A stretch of 64,000 bases of DNA from Opitutales bacterium (GCA_965197745.1 CBDANS010000006.1:1-64000); one strand, 5' to 3'. Counted from the stretch's first letter, positions 17,775 to 24,775 are shown. Translations and numbers: made by a program. Notes: generated by a model from the letters alone, not told the origin.

Positions 17775-19064
17775 CTAACCCGTTTGAAGCTGCCAGGATG
17801 TCACTGGACCTAATAACCCGGGTCTTGCTTCGACCCAGTAAGGCGAATCGCTCAGCCCCCCCTTGATTTCCAGGTAAATGCTCGGTCCAAGTACTCCGGG
17901 TTCGCATATCCACTGCTGATGGTAGATGCCAAGAAAGAGATCGAGCCGGTATTCTCCTTCATTGAGATACCTGGCGGGAATGTGATTACGCAATACGCAT
18001 TTCCCTTCGGGCAGTTCCTGCCATTCACGCTCGGACCTGTCACGATTAGTGCTCCAGTAGAGCATGGGTCCGCTCGCATGAAAAATCCCAAAACCAATTT
18101 GTAATCCCGGATCAGGCTTGTTGACCTTCCCTTCAATGCTCACCCAGATATCGCCATCGTTCTTTACCGGAAGGGCGAGTTGTTCCCCATTCACGTCGCT
18201 AAGATAAAAACGTTCGGGAATGAACCACGGATTGTCCCACTCATTCTTTATATTAATCCATTCGGTGGTAATACTCTCTGAAGTGGAGGCCAGGAGATAC
18301 TGACGGACGACAGCGCCAACGTTTTCACTGTAGTCTTGTATGCGTCCCTCATTGAGATGGATGCATTGATTGCATATAAATTCGACGGCATTCATGTTGT
18401 GACTGACAAAGAGGACCGTGCGGCCCTGGTTGCTGGAAACTTCATTCATCTTGCCAAGACATTTTTTCTGAAAAGCAGCATCTCCCACCGCCAGGACTTC
18501 GTCGATGACAAGGATTTCCGGTTCAAGGTGAGCGGCGACAGCAAAAGCGAGACGAACATACATACCACTGGAATAACGTTTAACCGGAGTATCAATAAAT
18601 TTCTCCACTCCTGAAAATTCTACTATTTCATCAAACTTGCTATTAATTTCCTGCTTGGACATACCGAGAAAGGCTCCGTTGAGAAAAATATTTTCACGAC
18701 CGGTTAAATCGGGATGGAAACCGGTGCCCACTTCGAGGAGAGAAGCCACGCGGCCTCTCAATTTTGCTTCACCGCTCGTCGGCTCCGTAATCCGGCTGAG
18801 AATTTTCAGAAGTGTGGATTTACCCGCACCGTTTTTCCCGATTATTCCGAGTACATTGCCGGGTTCCACGGAGAAGGAAACATCTTTAAGCGCCCAAAAA
18901 AGATCATCGTGCGTTTTGTTCTTTTTATCAATCTCATGATCACGGTCTTGTTTCTTAAATCCCTGCCACAATTGTTGGATTTCTTCTCTCAAGGTAGTCG
19001 ACCCGAATTGCCCTAATCGGTAAGCTTTAGAAAGTGAATTAACTTCAATGATCGAACGACTCAT
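17775..19064 (-). CDS. wzt: Polysaccharide ABC transporter ATP-binding protein with C-terminal Wzt_C-like domain
   Basis: GKNGAGKST Walker A, YSSGM signature, IDEVLAVGD Walker B, about 170-aa C-terminal extension. Confidence 0.92.
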   Translation of the reverse strand: MSRSIIEVNSLSKAYRLGQFGSTTLREEIQQLWQGFKKQDRDHEIDKKNKTHDDLFWALKDVSFSVEPGNVLGIIGKNGAGKSTLLKILSRITEPTSGEAKLRGRVASLLEVGTGFHPDLTGRENIFLNGAFLGMSKQEINSKFDEIVEFSGVEKFIDTPVKRYSSGMYVRLAFAVAAHLEPEILVIDEVLAVGDAAFQKKCLGKMNEVSSNQGRTVLFVSHNMNAVEFICNQCIHLNEGRIQDYSENVGAVVRQYLLASTSESITTEWINIKNEWDNPWFIPERFYLSDVNGEQLALPVKNDGDIWVSIEGKVNKPDPGLQIGFGIFHASGPMLYWSTNRDRSEREWQELPEGKCVLRNHIPARYLNEGEYRLDLFLGIYHQQWICEPGVLGPSIYLEIKGGLSDSPYWVEARPGLLGPVTSWQLQTG

Positions 19065-19091: not shown

Positions 19092-19937
19092 TTAAACAGT
19101 ATCAACGAAGGTTCGCTGCACGCGGTTAAAGATTAGAACCCCACTGACCATGATGATTAAGGTTACGATGACTGAACTGGTGAGGATGAGAGGGGTTAAA
19201 GTCCCCTGGCCCAGGAACATAAAGCGCGTGCTTTCAACCACACTGGTCATGGGGTTGAGCGCAAGTATCCATCTGTATTGCTCGGCGATTGCGGTTGTAG
19301 GATAAATTATCGGCGTGGCATACATCCATACCTGGGTAATAAACTGGAGGGCATGGATGAGGTCCCGGTACTTCGCGGTGAGGGAAGCAAACCATAGTCC
19401 CACCCCTAAAGCCAAACATGCTGTTTGCAAAATCAAAAAAGGAAAAAAGACAATGCTTTCATTGATGACAAAAGTATCACCCACTGAGGTAAAATACTTG
19501 AAGTAAATAAATATTATCAGAAATGCTACTAATTGGATAGCCGCAGCGATCAGGCTTGAGAGAAGAAAACCCAGTGGCACCACGAGTCGTGGAAAATAGA
19601 CTTTTCCAAAGAGATGGGCATTAGTTCTAAAAGTCGCGGTGATACTGTTAAAGGATTGGCTGAAATAATTCCAGGCCAGGAGGCCGCTCATATAAAAGAG
19701 AACCGGAGGCAGGTTATCGGTTGATAGTTTAGCAACCCGGTTAAATATAATCGTAAAGACTACGGTCATTACTAATGGTTGAAAGACAAACCACAAAGGG
19801 CCGAGCACCGTTTGTTTGTACTTGGAGACAAAATCACGTCGCACAAGTAAGGTCAGGAGATCACGGTAGGCCCATATTTCACGCCATTCTACATTGAACC
19901 AGCTACGATCAGGTTTGATTGTATATTCGTCAGGCAT
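19092..19937 (-). CDS. wzm: Polysaccharide ABC transporter permease
   Basis: YRDLLTLLVRRDFVSKYKQTVLGPLW, YFPR, YRD, YATPIIYP, NPM motifs; adjacent to wzt. Confidence 0.92.
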   Translation of the reverse strand: MPDEYTIKPDRSWFNVEWREIWAYRDLLTLLVRRDFVSKYKQTVLGPLWFVFQPLVMTVVFTIIFNRVAKLSTDNLPPVLFYMSGLLAWNYFSQSFNSITATFRTNAHLFGKVYFPRLVVPLGFLLSSLIAAAIQLVAFLIIFIYFKYFTSVGDTFVINESIVFFPFLILQTACLALGVGLWFASLTAKYRDLIHALQFITQVWMYATPIIYPTTAIAEQYRWILALNPMTSVVESTRFMFLGQGTLTPLILTSSVIVTLIIMVSGVLIFNRVQRTFVDTV

Positions 19938-20035
19938 CGGGGATTGCGAATACGCGGGAATGGGAGTATGCGTGCATGCGTAAATGCGTAGACGTGAAAA
20001 TGTGTAAATGCGAATAAGGGGTAAAGCTAATAAGC
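19938..20035 (+). repeat. Degenerate 8-bp tandem repeat array (about 12 units, consensus close to GTAAATGC), left flank of the four-helix-bundle gene
   Basis: gggattgc gaatacgc gggaatgg gagtatgc gtgcatgc gtaaatgc gtagacgt gaaaatgt gtaaatgc gaataagg ggtaaagc taataagc. Confidence 0.85.
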
Positions 20036-20071
20036 AAAATGTCGTATCTGTGATTTATATGAAGCAGTCAA

Positions 20072-20434
20072 ATGACGCGAATAAAGACGCATAAAGATTT
20101 AGAAATATGGCAATTGGCTATTCAACTTGTTAAGCTCTGTTATAAATTTACACATGAATTTCCTAAAGATGAGCTATATGGTTTAACATTGCAGATTCGT
20201 AGAGCAGCTATTTCGATCCCTTCTAATATTTCCGAAGGTGCAGCTAGAAGCTCAAAAAAGGAACTAATCCATTTTTTATACTATAGCTTAGGATCATTAG
20301 CAGAGTTAGAGACACAGATCATTATCGCGGCCGAACTGGAATATTTAAAAGAATCAGAAAATACAATTGAAGAAATAGAAAAGATTCGTCGTAAACTTCT
20401 AAATTTTATAAAATATCAAAAATCTAAATCGTGA
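20072..20434 (+). CDS. Four helix bundle protein (23S rRNA intervening-sequence protein / S23 / bAvd-like family)
   Basis: HKDLEIWQ...FPKDELYGLTLQIRRAAISIPSNISEGAAR...FLYYSLGSLAELETQ family signature. Confidence 0.92.
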   Translation: MTRIKTHKDLEIWQLAIQLVKLCYKFTHEFPKDELYGLTLQIRRAAISIPSNISEGAARSSKKELIHFLYYSLGSLAELETQIIIAAELEYLKESENTIEEIEKIRRKLLNFIKYQKSKS

Positions 20435-20441
20435 AATAATC

Positions 20442-20554
20442 GCTTCTACGAATTAACCCATTCTCGCTTTCACGCATTACCCCATTCTCGCATTAACCCA
20501 TTTTCCCATATCCGCATCTCCACATATACGCATATTCGCATTAACGCTTCCCCG
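20442..20554 (+). repeat. Degenerate 8-bp tandem repeat array (about 14 units, consensus close to GCATTWAC), reverse complement of the left array
   Basis: gcttctac gaattaac ccattctc gctttcac gcattacc ccattctc gcattaac ccattttc ccatatcc gcatctcc acatatac gcatattc gcattaac gcttcccc. Confidence 0.85.
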
Positions 20555-20562
20555 CAAATCTC

Positions 20563-20600
20563 CACGCTGCCGCCCCTGGTCGTATACCGTCTCGACGCCA
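20563..20600 (-). promoter_or_regulatory. ops/JUMPStart-like element (RfaH recruitment site)
   Basis: Minus strand TGGCGTCGAGACGGTATACGACCAGGGGCGGCAGCGTG; the core GGCGGCAGCGTG differs by one base from enterobacterial ops GGCGGTAGCGTG and is preceded by a small hairpin; lies between the RfaH-like gene and the glycan operon. Confidence 0.75.
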
Positions 20601-20689
20601 AGATCTCCTGCCCATCCACGACTCATGTGGAGATATAATTTTTGACTGTGATGAACGCGGACCATCGATCCGTGCCCGGTGAAATAATT

Positions 20690-21247
20690 TTACTTAACGA
20701 AAAAAGATTTTGGTTCTCGGTTTCTCACCATAATGTTGTGAGCGGGTAGATCGACGTTGATCTGCCGACCGAGAAACTCGAGTAAGAGGCTGACTCGTTT
20801 TAGCGCCGGCAGGTGTCCGTTGACGACAGCAATGATATCTTTAAAGGGGCCATCTATGACAACTACTTCAGAGCCAATGGTGAGAGCGGGTTCAGGTGAT
20901 TCTCTGCACTCATCGGGCACTTGCTCTTTTAAATGATCAATAAAGGCCCCCGGTAAACGGGGAAATTCATGACCATAGCGCACGACTGAGTTTACACCGG
21001 GAATGGATAAGAGTGTGCGATAGCGGCTGCCGATTTCGCAACAGGTAAAAATATATCTCGGAAAAAGAGCTTCGGTAAATCGAACCCTGCCTCGCCGTGT
21101 CTTTTTAAAATAAGTTATCCGAGGGCAAAATACTTTCAGCCCAACCCGGGAGCGTATGTTCGCGGCAGCAATATGTTCACGCTTGGGCTGTGTGTGCAGA
21201 CAGTACCAGGCTTCTTCAGAATTAACTTCCAGGTGGAGACTTATCAT
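20690..21247 (-). CDS. rfaH: NusG paralogue, RfaH/UpxY-like transcription antiterminator
   Basis: WYCLHTQPKRE, EALFPRYIF, GVNSVVRYG NGN motifs; C-terminal KOW (GSEVVVIDGPF...RVSLLLEFLGRQ). Confidence 0.85.
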   Translation of the reverse strand: MISLHLEVNSEEAWYCLHTQPKREHIAAANIRSRVGLKVFCPRITYFKKTRRGRVRFTEALFPRYIFTCCEIGSRYRTLLSIPGVNSVVRYGHEFPRLPGAFIDHLKEQVPDECRESPEPALTIGSEVVVIDGPFKDIIAVVNGHLPALKRVSLLLEFLGRQINVDLPAHNIMVRNREPKSFFVK

Positions 21248-21249
21248 AA

Positions 21250-21738
21250 TTAGAATTTTATGAATTTTATAATTTTACCGACCAGCCCATGACCATGTTT
21301 CAGCCAGCTGTTTAATTTAATAAGTCGACTCTTATAATACTCCTGATCTTCCGTGGGTGTATCATCCAGTTGGGACTGGATGCTTTGCAATCGTTCGGCA
21401 GCACTTTCCAGTTGGGGAAATACCTCCTCCCTGAAGAAACCGACCGTTAACTTTCGAAATTCAGCCTCTGCCGTGTAATAATCCTTGCGGTCTCCGGCTC
21501 GGTAAATTGCTTTAACCGCTCGAAATGATCGCAGTTGTTTCAGTCCCTGGCTGGCCGACCCTAAACTGATATTGAGTTTAGCCATGATCTGGTTCATGGA
21601 GAGCGGTGCCGGTGTTATATATAGCAGTCCGTAAATCTCCCCAATCGATTTAGGGAGACCTAAGAGCTGCACGCCACGAACAAATATATCTATGACTTCG
21701 GCTTCCAGCTGAGTAAGTGACTCTGTGTATACCGCCAT
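21250..21738 (-). CDS. GbsR/MarR-family winged-helix transcriptional regulator
   Basis: GLPKSIGEIYGLLY, LNISLGSASQGLKQL, GDRKDYY motifs. Confidence 0.85.
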   Translation of the reverse strand: MAVYTESLTQLEAEVIDIFVRGVQLLGLPKSIGEIYGLLYITPAPLSMNQIMAKLNISLGSASQGLKQLRSFRAVKAIYRAGDRKDYYTAEAEFRKLTVGFFREEVFPQLESAAERLQSIQSQLDDTPTEDQEYYKSRLIKLNSWLKHGHGLVGKIIKFIKF

Positions 21739-21996: not shown

Positions 21997-23412
21997 ATGA
22001 TAGAGGGGAGAAGACAAGGGTTATTAACGCTTCATTGGCTATTTATCGCGATCGTTTTACCCGTTTGGTTTCTTATCGCGGTCTACATAGGCGTAGAATA
22101 CGTACATAAAATCAAATACGAACAGATAAATTTTCCCATTTACCTCGCGGGCATCGCGTTTGCCAGTTTACAGATTCTCAGTAACTACAGTCGTGCTGAT
22201 TCACGTCGGACTCCCGGATATCTATGGGTAGAAGCAATACGCAAGACTAATTCCAATGCCATCGTCCTGGCGCTGGCGTTCTTTGCGATCGTTTACGCAA
22301 CCAAGGACAAATCGATGAGCCGCCTTTTTCTAGGTTCATTCATATTGAGCACATGGTTTATTCTATTACCCCTCAACCGGTATTTACCGATCTGGTTAAC
22401 ACGGTTACTCTATCGCGGAGATAATGCGGTAAAAACCGTGCTCGTAGGAAACCCCGGCGCAATAAAGTATCTGGATGAATGGATAACCGAAGAACCACCA
22501 CTGGGAATGCAGATATTGGGAATAATTACCCCTCCCGAGAAGGATGAAGTTAAGGCACAAATTCCTCACCTTGGGACCATAAATGAATTCGAGCGAATCC
22601 TCGTAGAAAATAAAGTACAACAGGTAATATTGCTGGAAACACTGCAATCCAGAGAATTTATAACTTCAGTCATCGATACCGCTCAGCACGAAGGATGCCG
22701 GATACTGATCGTAAATGACTGGGAAGATTATTTTAAAATTCCAGTCACCACCGTAAATGAGGGCCAGTACTCCTTCTATACACTGCAGGAAGAACCTCTG
22801 GAAAACCCCATTAACCGTTTCCTCAAACGTTTTTTAGACATAGCAGTATCATTACCGATTGTCCTGACAATACTCCCCATACTGTGTGTAATTATTAAAT
22901 GCATACAAATTAAACAATCACCCGGACCTCTTATATTTCGTCAAAAAAGATCGGGTGTTTATAAAAAAGCATTCTATCTCTATAAATTTCGAACCATGCA
23001 TTTCACAGAGAAGAACACAACAGATGAAAGTCATCAAGCAACGGTAAATGACGAGCGGGTCTATCCTTTAGGTAAATTTTTGCGGAAGAATAGTATTGAT
23101 GAGTTTGCCCAGTTCCTGAACGTCCTATTGGGTGAAATGAGCCTGGTCGGACCAAGGCCTCATTATTTAAAGCATGATGAAGAGTTCAGAAAAGAGGTTA
23201 ACATTTACCAAATTCGCCATCTCGTAAAACCCGGCATTACCGGATTGGCTCAAAGTCGAGGTTTTCGCGGTGAAATAACGGACGTCTCACAAATCCACGG
23301 CCGCGTCCGCTCAGACCTCGAATACATAAACAGTTGGACTATATGGATGGACATTCTAATAATTTTAAAAACAATCTACCAGGTAATGTTTCCACCACGC
23401 AGTGTGGAGTGA
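21997..23412 (+). CDS. wcaJ: Undecaprenyl-phosphate sugar-1-phosphate transferase (WcaJ/WbaP-type initiating enzyme)
   Basis: Four N-terminal TM helices, KRFLDI, YKFRTM, SIDEFAQFLNVLLGEMSLVGPRP, VKPGITGLAQ; last codons and stop come from the IS3 left end. Confidence 0.9.
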   Translation: MIEGRRQGLLTLHWLFIAIVLPVWFLIAVYIGVEYVHKIKYEQINFPIYLAGIAFASLQILSNYSRADSRRTPGYLWVEAIRKTNSNAIVLALAFFAIVYATKDKSMSRLFLGSFILSTWFILLPLNRYLPIWLTRLLYRGDNAVKTVLVGNPGAIKYLDEWITEEPPLGMQILGIITPPEKDEVKAQIPHLGTINEFERILVENKVQQVILLETLQSREFITSVIDTAQHEGCRILIVNDWEDYFKIPVTTVNEGQYSFYTLQEEPLENPINRFLKRFLDIAVSLPIVLTILPILCVIIKCIQIKQSPGPLIFRQKRSGVYKKAFYLYKFRTMHFTEKNTTDESHQATVNDERVYPLGKFLRKNSIDEFAQFLNVLLGEMSLVGPRPHYLKHDEEFRKEVNIYQIRHLVKPGITGLAQSRGFRGEITDVSQIHGRVRSDLEYINSWTIWMDILIILKTIYQVMFPPRSVE

Positions 23413-23469
23413 CCCCCAAAAATGGTATCATTAACAGAGAGAGGTTATCGGGATAAACAGATAACCTCA

Positions 23470-23736
23470 ATGAAAAGAAAAAGATATACAACAGAACAGA
23501 TCATAGCAATACTGCGGCAGCCCGATACGGGCAAAACCGTGCAGGAAGTCTGCCACGGCAACAACCTAAGTGAACAGACCTTCTATCGCTGGGGCAAAAA
23601 GTATGGCAACTTGGAGCTGGCTGATGCGAAGCGATTTAAAGAGCTGGAAAAGGAGAATACGGAGCTGAAGAAGATGCTCGCTGATCAAATGCTCAAGCTT
23701 CGGGTGTTGGAGGAAACGCTCTCAAAAAAATGGTGA
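23470..23736 (+). CDS. IS3 OrfA (HTH transposase subunit)
   Basis: MKRKRYTTEQIIAIL...SEQTFYRW.KKYG...KELEKENTELKKMLAD. Confidence 0.85.
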   Translation: MKRKRYTTEQIIAILRQPDTGKTVQEVCHGNNLSEQTFYRWGKKYGNLELADAKRFKELEKENTELKKMLADQMLKLRVLEETLSKKW

Positions 23737-24164
23737 GCCCAAAGCAGAAGAAGCGAGCAGTAAAAGATGCGGCTGAGAAGGGGCTGTGCTCGTTTTAGAG
23801 GGCTTGTGCTTATCTCAGCCTCAGTTGGTCAACGTACAGCTACCGACCCAAGCAGGCCAGTAAGAAGGCTCAGCAATTGGCCGAGCGGATTTTGACCTTG
23901 TCCTGGGAACATCCCCGTTACGGTTACCGGCGCATTCGTGCCTTGCTGGTGAAAGAAGGTTGGGCGGCAAGCAGGAAATTTGTACAGGCAGTGCGACGTT
24001 CTTCGGGCTTACAGGTAAAGCCCCCGAAAAAGCGTAGACACCGTCAGGGGATCTCTACTGGGCTCCCTACTAAAGCAACCGGTCGCAATCACGTCTGGTC
24101 CTGGGACTTTGTCCATGATCGTACAGACAATGGCGGTATGCTAAAGATGATGACCTTGATCGAT

Positions 24165-24209
24165 GTACCGAGGAGCTGAAAGCGACGACACTCAAGCGAA
24201 GCGAAGACA
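24165..24209 (+). repeat. Short inserted element copy 1 (net +42 bp), contains GCGAAGC
   Basis: GTACCGAGGAGCTGAAAGCGACGACACTCAAGCGAAGCGAAGACA interrupts the expected LID(E)YTR motif. Confidence 0.75.
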
Positions 24210-24335
24210 TATACGCGTAAATGTTTACGCATCCGGGTAGCTCGACAGCTCACCTCAACCGATGTTCTCTCGGTACTCAGCGAAACCATCGATGAAGAGG
24301 GAGTTCCTAGCTATATCCGCAGTGACAACGGCAGT

Positions 24336-24369
24336 GTTCCGAGGAGCGAAGCGACGACATGCGAAGCCA
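24336..24369 (+). repeat. Short inserted element copy 2 (net +31 bp), contains GCGAAGC twice
   Basis: GTTCCGAGGAGCGAAGCGACGACATGCGAAGCCA interrupts the expected SDNGS(E)FIA motif. Confidence 0.75.
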
Positions 24370-24775
24370 TTCATTGCTCATCAGGTGCAGCAGTGGTTGT
24401 CCGACAAAAAGATCAAGGCGATATATATCGATCCGGGCAGTCCCTGGCAAAACGGTTTCATCGAGTCGTTTCACAACCGCTTACGCGATGAGTGTTTGAA
24501 CCGTGAAGTGTTGCTCAGCGTGGCTGAAGCGCAAGTGCTAATAGAACAATGGCGTCAGACCTATAACAATGAACATCCCCACAGTCGATTAGGCTTTAAA
24601 AGCCCACAAGAGTTTGTCACATTCCTTTCCGCTCTTGGCCGCGTTCGGGCTACGCCCTCACTGCGCCAAGATCTCTCATATACATCAATCCTAAAACCAT
24701 TAACACCCGGTAGTTCTCTCACTTAAAATTTGATACGAAATACGGGGTCCGATCACTGGGATTAATCGTTACCTG

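Follow-up and report, generated by a model that had tools for sequence, protein, structure and literature searches.

Proteins of the S23p family, also called the intervening-sequence protein (IVP) family, form a large and widespread group. According to PMC4990558, the group was discovered in Leptospira rRNA and has since then had no known function. Intervening sequences in 23S rRNA that bear an open reading frame (ORF) for the S23p protein occur in Leptospira, Coxiella burnetii, Xanthomonas and Brucella. The Coxiella rRNA element is described as having an inverted-repeat stem, excision by RNase III, heptameric repeats that vary in number and lie upstream of the ORF, a low GC content, and an ORF that is sense to the rRNA (PMC4990558). 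Two other systems have features in common with what we describe below. G-rich heptamer repeats occur in Xanthomonas and Nostoc, often as convergent pairs, with 70-75 pairs per Xanthomonas genome, according to the cited part of Rehm et al. 2015 (PMC4692102). Avd, an accessory protein of diversity-generating retroelements, has a pentameric four-helix-bundle fold, as stated in the cited part of PMC10053308. Here, we analyzed a 64,000-nucleotide stretch of DNA from an Opitutales bacterium (GCA_965197745.1, CBDANS010000006.1:1-64000; hereafter, the window). We found that a gene of the IVP family in the leader of a glycan-export operon is enclosed by inverted arrays of tandem octamers, and that the gene and arrays together make up a unit of 617 bp (19938-20554), referred to below as the cassette.

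We think that the cassette is probably an ORF-bearing intervening sequence that resides outside rRNA and has arms that form a stem in RNA. As judged by sequence comparisons, the cassette is discrete, old, and horizontally spread, and the design of a gene within inverted arrays is found across many phyla with repeat units that are specific to each locus.

The cassette gene and its inverted arms

The cassette gene (20072-20434, + strand) encodes a four-helix-bundle protein of 120 amino acids and is antisense to the operon. The protein matches PF05635 (23S_rRNA_IVP) with E=1.2e-35 and 122.3 bits (cut-off, 33.8), and the match spans positions 1-104 of the 106 in the profile. It also matches TIGR02436 ('four helix bundle protein') with 120.7 bits (cut-off, 24). 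Both matches are above their cut-offs, and the assignment of an antisense IVP-family gene in a preliminary description of this DNA was thus correct. The closest solved structure is PDB 2GSC (E=1.1e-24), and 2RLD is a further solved relative by sequence likeness; each was deposited with 5 chains. Based on the likeness to these two entries, the cassette protein may form a homopentameric toroid of four-helix bundles.

The GC content of the gene is 32%, compared to 43-47% in the surroundings. We compared the gene to its orthologue in a genome from the same family but another genus (G001). The ratio of nonsynonymous to synonymous substitutions (dN/dS) was 0.14 at a dS of 0.97, which indicates that the protein is kept under purifying selection. 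There was no match to any defense family in PADLOC, and no match in a tblastn search of a phage collection at 1e-5.

The gene lies between two arms. The left arm (19938-20035) has ~11 degenerate octamers of the GTAAATGC type and is rich in G on the + strand; in the operon transcript, its complement forms the C-rich 3' arm. Between the left arm and the gene is a non-repetitive spacer (20036-20071, + strand) that has a homologous counterpart upstream of the G001 gene. The right arm (20440-20557), with ~14 degenerate octamers of the GCATTWAC type, is the left arm in reverse complement. The unit begins with the hexamer CGGGGA (19938-19943) and ends with TCCCCG (20549-20554). Read in register from 19940, 10 of the 13 octamers in the left arm fit the GTAAATGC consensus at 5 or more of the 8 positions, as do 13 of 14 octamers in the right arm, read from 20442 and compared to GCATTWAC. 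The chance rate of such a match is 0.04-0.06 per octamer. In addition, Tandem Repeats Finder (TRF) reported periods of 8, 16 and 24 on both flanks of the gene. The mirror-image octamer arrays that had been noticed by inspection are thus present.

The two arms are predicted to pair as RNA. In the longest register, 19944-20027 pairs with 20474-20557 (84 nt, 73% complementary), and other registers pair too. The flank complementarity score was 26.5, compared to a maximum of 15 among 1500 random placements in the same genome. Co-folding the arms gave -87.9 kcal/mol and 68 inter-arm pairs for the operon-sense strand (-58.0 +/- 4.2 for 200 shuffles), and -79.5 kcal/mol and 63 inter-arm pairs for the gene-sense strand (-50.0 +/- 3.7 for 200 shuffles). 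None of the 200 shuffles was as low for either strand. The fold of the entire 681-nt stretch had z=-3.07 relative to 20 shuffles. These models predict that ~65 bp of pairing forms between the arms, in several registers. The preliminary description had proposed pairing of this sort in the operon transcript with a stem of about 100 bp; the pairing and its several registers stand, and the predicted length is ~65 bp. An Rfam scan of 19500-21300, with E up to 1, gave no match. A scan for promoters and terminators found nothing beyond what is expected from shuffles (2 promoter-like sites, compared to 2.9 +/- 1.5).

Short tandem repeats with a period of 6-9 are common in the genome that contains the window (G000), with 339 merged arrays at a TRF score of at least 36. 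This abundance is what one would cite in favor of chance, with two simple-sequence repeats that happen to lie on either side of a small gene unrelated to them. We consider the likelihood of this negligible. The flank score was above that of all 1500 random placements, the co-fold beat 200 of 200 shuffles on both strands, and the design recurs at 10 of 12 loci in G000 and at 56 of 79 related loci, as described below.

Related cassettes in the same genome and across phyla

In G000 (4.45 Mb, 7 contigs), we found 14 PF05635 matches, corresponding to ~12 genes. Nearly all of these genes have short tandem repeats upstream and the reverse complement downstream, and the repeat unit differs from locus to locus. 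For 10 of the 12, no more than 1.9% of 1500 random placements had a flank score as high, and the score was at least 14 for 8 of the 12. The periods are mostly 7; the window copy, with a period of 8, is the strongest. The paralogues are 19-41% identical to the window protein. Four of the 12 genes are sense to both neighbors, three are antisense to both, and five are in other arrangements. None of the 12 is located in the 23S rRNA gene. The single 23S gene that we found (G000:C6:995268-998203) matched the model from end to end and had no large insert. G000 also has a gene for RNase III (223.7 bits; cut-off, 166).

We surveyed related loci using the window protein alone as the query. We fetched 80 loci, 79 of which had usable flanks, and the relatives were 45-66% identical to the query. 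They come from Bacteroidota, Planctomycetota, Nitrospirota, Chlorobiota, Desulfobacterota, Cloacimonadota, lineages of the candidate phyla radiation, Gammaproteobacteria, and others. Inverted flanks scored over the 95th percentile of a cross-locus control at 56 of the 79 loci, and over the 99th percentile at 30. Inverted periodic flanks around homologues, a check proposed in the preliminary description, are found both in G000 and among relatives. The arm period in the 56 loci was 7 in 36, 8 in 18, and 6 in 2.

The arms have a polarity. On the gene strand, the upstream arm has more G than C in 53 of the 56 loci; the composition is 10% C and 33% G in the 5' arms, and 32% C and 10% G in the 3' arms. 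Since the arms are inverted repeats, the polarity is identical on either strand. That is, the G-rich arm is transcribed first and the C-rich arm second, regardless of which strand is transcribed. We also counted stop trinucleotides. There were 224 in the 5' arms, compared to 151.5 +/- 7.5 in shuffles that break the tandem structure, and 94 in the 3' arms, compared to 72.7 +/- 6.4 in such shuffles. This excess is suggestive only.

At 58 of the 79 loci the gene is sense to both neighbors, and at 3 of the 79 it is antisense to both. The common sense state would fit a gene that is expressed, as in rRNA, when transcription reads through from the host operon. Insertion tied to the direction of replication would fit too.

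Arm sequence tracks the relatedness of the proteins (Spearman 0.26). Arm 6-mers were common to 93% of the 58 protein pairs that are at least 70% identical and to 20% of the 986 pairs at 40-50%; sharing was 10-20% in pairs below 50% identity. Arm sharing thus follows protein identity, indicating that the arms move with the gene, yet are fully replaced between distant cassettes while remaining complementary within each.

The joint inheritance of arms and protein bears on the possibility that the protein is a repeat-binding regulator. A pentamer would sit on the 7-8-nt units of one arm, much as TRAP does on spaced triplets, and would govern the stem, its own expression and that of the operon. Homologues solved with 5 chains per entry and purifying selection on the protein would fit this. 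So would the periodic arms with a recurring core (AGT is repeated in 34 of the 56 5' arms and GTGA in 20), although the shuffle null used for this core ignores tandem structure. However, joint inheritance is expected from common descent alone, and the IVP protein of the Coxiella rRNA was concluded, in the cited portion of PMC4990558, to be probably not made in vivo. We regard a regulator of this type as improbable, and we can only guess that a pentamer would bind the periodic repeats.

A search of plasmids with the cassette protein matched 39 records, cyanobacterial for the most part. On the conjugative plasmid gamma of Nostoc sp. PCC 7120 (L112:1204-1620), a related four-helix-bundle gene has a heptamer array of the CTCTGCC type downstream. 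An ISL3 transposase gene ends ~80 nt upstream of this copy, and no matching upstream array is visible there.

Comparison of individual loci shows gain, loss and erosion of cassettes. One of the G000 cassettes lies between atpG and atpD (C6; L007:1346-1880), in the sense orientation, and a small gene-less hairpin that precedes it holds the tail of an older copy. This cassette is present in G000, G001 and a third genome, G002. The corresponding site in G003 (L107, C16:18941-19081) has only a 141-nt remnant, in which the tail of the ORF is still present, and G028, from the same order but another family, has a plain spacer of ~35 nt.

Another G000 cassette (C7; L009:1385-1946) is located at the end of a gene for tRNA-Ser(CGA) (L009:1313-1402), and has a perfect 25-nt direct repeat on both sides. 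Each copy of the repeat comprises the final 18 nt of the tRNA and a further 7 nt. In G001 and G002, the same tRNA-Ser is next to a gene-less hairpin made of the same units, with no gene and no second copy of the repeat. Past the second copy of the repeat, the G000 sequence is homologous to that found after tRNA-Ser in G001. Based on these comparisons, the G000 cassette looks like a 537-bp site-specific, att-like insertion of an element that has no integrase of its own.

The surroundings of this tRNA are repetitive. Three tandem copies of a 127-bp unit (94-97% alike; L009:923-1334) reach into the 5' part of tRNA-Ser. The region after the cassette (~L009:1980-2250) matches dozens of sites in G001 and G002 and is thus a dispersed repeat of the hairpin type in this family of genomes.

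At a different locus in G001 (L113, C1:2776440-2777460), there are three fragments of a tRNA 3' end, each before a hairpin module of the same heptamers; a four-helix-bundle gene lies in the last of the three modules. ARAGORN found no intact tRNA at this locus. It looks like a tandem accretion of small hairpin elements.

Arrays without an IVP gene are also present in G000. We found five inverted pairs with loops of 80-112 nt (C6:1441249-1441514, C7:374272-374408, C7:779290-779443, C7:1599535-1599677 and C7:497188-497321), several of them with units that resemble those flanking IVP genes. The first of these retains leader sequence of an IVP cassette and has ~19 perfect CTGAACC units. Separately, inverted hexamer arrays (AAGACG / TCTTCG) 560 nt apart surround an open frame at G000:C4:212155-212780, and a pair with the same spacing is at G000:C7:1928-2553. 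The open frame looks by eye like a frameshifted GNAT acetyltransferase, and array-armed hairpins may carry other cargo too. Both places are near contig ends and may be one region that was assembled twice.

It is possible that the structure acts as DNA. The unit would then be a small, non-autonomous mobile element with the arms as its hairpin or cruciform ends, dependent on an integrase or a single-strand transposase supplied in trans, and the RNA stem would be incidental. A classic mark of site-specific integration is seen at tRNA-Ser(CGA), where 537 bp are inserted at the 3' end with a perfect 25-nt duplication of the tRNA end. The repeated tRNA-end fragments in G001, each before a hairpin module, and the gene-less hairpins with the same units in G000 point in the same direction, and the strong orientation bias relative to neighbors could stem from replication-linked insertion. 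In contrast, a direct repeat of at least 12 nt that is not part of an array flanks only 2 of 88 loci, and a tRNA or tmRNA gene adjoins only 2 of the 80 relatives. The divergence among the copies in G000 (19-41% identity to the window protein) indicates no recent burst, and there is no recombinase beside the window cassette. On balance, we think it unlikely that the cassette is only a mobile DNA element of this sort.

We also considered a transposon or miniature inverted-repeat transposable element (MITE). Inverted arms are present, but there is no general flanking direct repeat and there are no near-identical copies, and we rejected this candidate.

The operon leader and the reversed orthologous copy

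The operon is on the minus strand. The first gene after the cassette (19092-19937, minus strand) encodes a wzm-like ABC-2 permease (PF01061, E=1.2e-18). The NCBIfam models for Wzm/RfbD and KpsM match this protein below their cut-offs, and it is 84% identical to the G001 orthologue. The start codon of wzm is the reverse complement of 19935-19937, and the left array thus starts, with zero spacing, at 19938. On the other side, 8 nt from the cassette, is a conserved ops-like block (20562-20583, minus strand), and the unit fills the entire gap from this block to the wzm start codon. The position between block and start codon, the inverted hexamers at the ends and the zero spacing had all been pointed out before, and the coordinates agree. 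We take the block, read on the operon strand, to resemble the ops antitermination element. It is conserved in G001 and G028 (three genomes and two families, with G000), unlike the remainder of the leader.

Upstream of the block is a gene for a NusG paralogue of the RfaH/UpxY/LoaP type (20690-21247, minus strand; PF02357, E=7.8e-12); its best NCBIfam match, to RfaH, was 82.5 bits, under the cut-off of 144.5. The first gene in the operon direction (21250-21738, minus strand) encodes a regulator of 162 amino acids that has no Pfam match and a weak similarity to CudC-type regulators (61.5 bits, below the cut-off). This gene is conserved beside the NusG paralogue in G028. Further members of the operon are an ABC ATPase gene (17775-19064, minus strand) and methyltransferase and glycosyltransferase genes, which extend down to ~7.9 kb, also on the minus strand. 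IS3-type transposase ORFs in pieces (HTH_Tnp_1, HTH_21, rve_3) are found at 23422-24726, beside a sugar-transferase gene (21997-23412). Among the ORFs searched from 7.9 to 30.7 kb, these broken transposase ORFs were all that we found in the way of an invertase or recombinase gene, and there was no reverse-transcriptase domain.

We compared this region to the orthologous region in G001. The wzm gene and the gene for the NusG paralogue in G001 are colinear with those in the window (77% and 72% identity). In contrast, window positions 19956-20556 align to G001 in reverse (73.8% over 610 columns). The G001 orthologue of the cassette gene is intact and lies in the sense orientation relative to the operon; the protein identity between the two is 76%. 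The nucleotide identity of the cassettes (74%) is in line with that of the flanks (72-77%). Thus, the cassette was present before the genera split, and its later reversal in one lineage came about either in place or by excision and re-insertion. The arms of G000 and G001 match equally well in both orientations (scores of 27 vs 29, and 35 vs 36), and therefore the crossover of an inversion cannot be placed. G028 has wzm, the NusG paralogue and the ops-like block, with no such gene in the leader; this is an unoccupied leader of the kind for which a comparison of related genomes had been proposed.

The opposite orientations might indicate a programmed switch, one in which inversion of the unit sets expression of the glycan-export operon, similar to the invertible promoters of Bacteroides capsule loci. 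The location between the NusG paralogue and the first operon gene, and the inverted repeats that bound the unit, would also suit such a switch. However, several results do not. There were 28 pairs of homologous flanks among the 79 related loci, and all 28 were colinear and none was inverted, which indicates that inversion is rare. No invertase was found among the ORFs searched, promoter-like sites do not exceed the shuffle expectation, and the same design is found in unrelated contexts, such as between atpG and atpD. In addition, contigs from two studies (runs X1 and X5) span 19400-21100 and have only the window orientation, with no joints, although this is weak evidence since contigs drop rare forms. 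The contigs of two other runs (X6 and X9) cover only fragments. We consider a programmed switch very improbable.

From the comparison of sequences, inversion looks like a rare evolutionary event and not a switch. The window copy is in the rare antisense state and the G001 orthologue is in the common sense state. The preliminary description had raised the idea of a mobile or invertible element. The discrete cassette and the inverted copy in G001 are in keeping with that idea; the 28 colinear flank pairs and the lack of an invertase among the ORFs searched speak against the part of it that would require programmed inversion.

A proposed mechanism and comparison with known systems

The reading that we favor is that the 617-bp unit is an ORF-bearing cassette of the intervening-sequence type outside rRNA, with arms that form an RNA stem. 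We put the probability of this reading as a whole at about 0.6. Any transcript across the cassette, in either direction, would have the G-rich, C-poor, stop-codon-rich arm first and the complementary C-rich arm later. The two arms would pair into a long imperfect duplex, with the gene looped out. In the operon transcript, the order would be the ops-like block, the G-rich arm, the gene in antisense, and the C-rich arm ending at the wzm AUG. The duplex would probably be cut, as in the rRNA versions, and the wzm message would be freed from the leader; that is, the host transcript would be severed yet usable. By analogy with rRNA, the enzyme could be RNase III specifically, which we consider possible but somewhat short of an even chance.

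The polarity of the arms could also have a role. With the G-rich arm first, a C-rich, G-poor stretch on which Rho could load would be hidden while the 400-nt loop is made. Sparing the transcript from Rho loading would explain how operons, such as this one and that of atpG and atpD, tolerate cassettes within them, and a position just after an antitermination signal would be especially safe for such an insert. Since the gene is sense to both neighbors in most relatives, it would usually be expressed by read-through from the host operon. In the window, the flip would have placed it antisense.

Template switching across quasi-palindromes is an established mutational route. Complementarity of the arms would probably be renewed by gain and loss of repeat units and by template switching across the palindrome, and not by paired point changes.

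Several observations weigh against the intervening-sequence reading. Clear inverted flanks are missing in 23 of the 79 relatives and in 2 of the 12 copies in G000. Mismatches in the arms have no clear wobble bias for either strand (53 G:T vs 76 A:C, p=0.05). Among nine close orthologous pairs, there were 32 single changes that break a pair and 2 compensatory double changes (6 double changes also break pairs). Breaking changes far outnumber compensatory ones, an outcome that gives no support to base-by-base selection on the stem. It is the small number of paired changes, together with the maintained complementarity, from which we infer that the arms are renewed by array-level events. The lack of wobble asymmetry and the few compensatory point changes also favor the alternative that the arms act as DNA. 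For G000 and G001, arm complementarity within a genome (scores of 38 and 47) is barely above arm similarity between genomes (27-36), and neutral decay from a perfect palindrome could explain these scores too. Read-through cannot express the window gene, which is antisense to the operon, and promoter-like sites are no more numerous than the shuffle expectation. Last, the rationale for arm polarity based on Rho and stop codons is one that we infer.

A broader version of the intervening-sequence reading is that there is a pan-bacterial class of intervening sequences in mRNA. Each would be a selfish gene in a hairpin that could reside within operons owing to G-first, stop-rich arms that RNase III removes or opens. 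The pentamer would control this by binding the 7-8-nt units, and the inverted heptamer and octamer repeats of bacteria, which have long lacked an explanation, would be gene-less relics of these elements. We view this version as rather unlikely.

Three regularities put what would be annotated as a 'hypothetical protein' in a testable form: inverted arrays that are around the gene nearly always, the polarity of the arms, and gain, loss, erosion and occasional flip of the cassette as a block. If processing of the RNA occurs as proposed, then these cassettes would be a common bacterial insert that severs operon transcripts harmlessly. The location of the window cassette directly after an ops-like antitermination site provides a natural setting in which to ask how a leader tolerates a 65-bp stem. 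Such inserts may also pass for CRISPR arrays, or for simple repeats, in automated annotation. In PMC10910872, a figure legend names '23S rRNA IVP' among proteins associated with CRISPR arrays, and it may be that the arrays flanking IVP genes were scored as CRISPR-like.

The preliminary description had called the unit an undescribed system. This is true only in part. Versions in rRNA that bear an ORF and have heptameric repeats in the stem are in print, as seen in the cited portion of PMC4990558. In contrast, a full-text literature search, which covered some of the journals, returned no description of inverted tandem-repeat arms around members of the IVP family outside rRNA. What is new at the window locus is the orthologous pair in opposite orientations, the polarity rule, the bias toward the sense orientation, and the clean insertion of a paralogue at a tRNA end.

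The cassette has different degrees of likeness to several known systems. The likeness to Avd is distant (NF033474, E=6.4e-5). The score of 23.2 bits, compared to a cut-off of 80, rules out that the cassette protein is Avd, and there is no reverse transcriptase among the neighboring ORFs searched. Similar to miniature inverted-repeat elements and to repetitive extragenic palindromic (REP) and bacterial interspersed mosaic element (BIME) hairpins, the cassette has inverted ends, there are gene-less intergenic derivatives, and its presence varies between relatives. It differs from these in that the arms are tandem arrays with a locus-specific unit, the copies are old and divergent, and there is no general target duplication.

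The heptamer repeats of Rehm et al. (PMC4692102, in the part cited here) are alike in having short tandem units (7 nt), potential stem-loops, a mostly intergenic location and a conserved position. They are read there as sequences that form G-quadruplexes and are given no connection to the IVP family ('S23' has 0 occurrences), whereas the window octamers have no G-runs.

The closest likeness is to the intervening sequences of rRNA. Unlike those, the window cassette is in an mRNA leader and not in rRNA helix 9, 25 or 45. The window gene is antisense to the host transcript, although the gene is sense in the G001 orthologue and in 58 of the 79 relatives. The window arms are long arrays of 11-14 octamers, and excision by RNase III applies to the rRNA versions. 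Like the rRNA intervening sequences, as they are described in the cited portion of PMC4990558, the cassette has a gene for the same protein family, located in a loop that is closed by complementary flanks, and a base composition that looks foreign. The likeness extends to the heptameric repeats in the stem region of the Coxiella element, and to a sporadic distribution that suggests horizontal transfer (PMC4990558).

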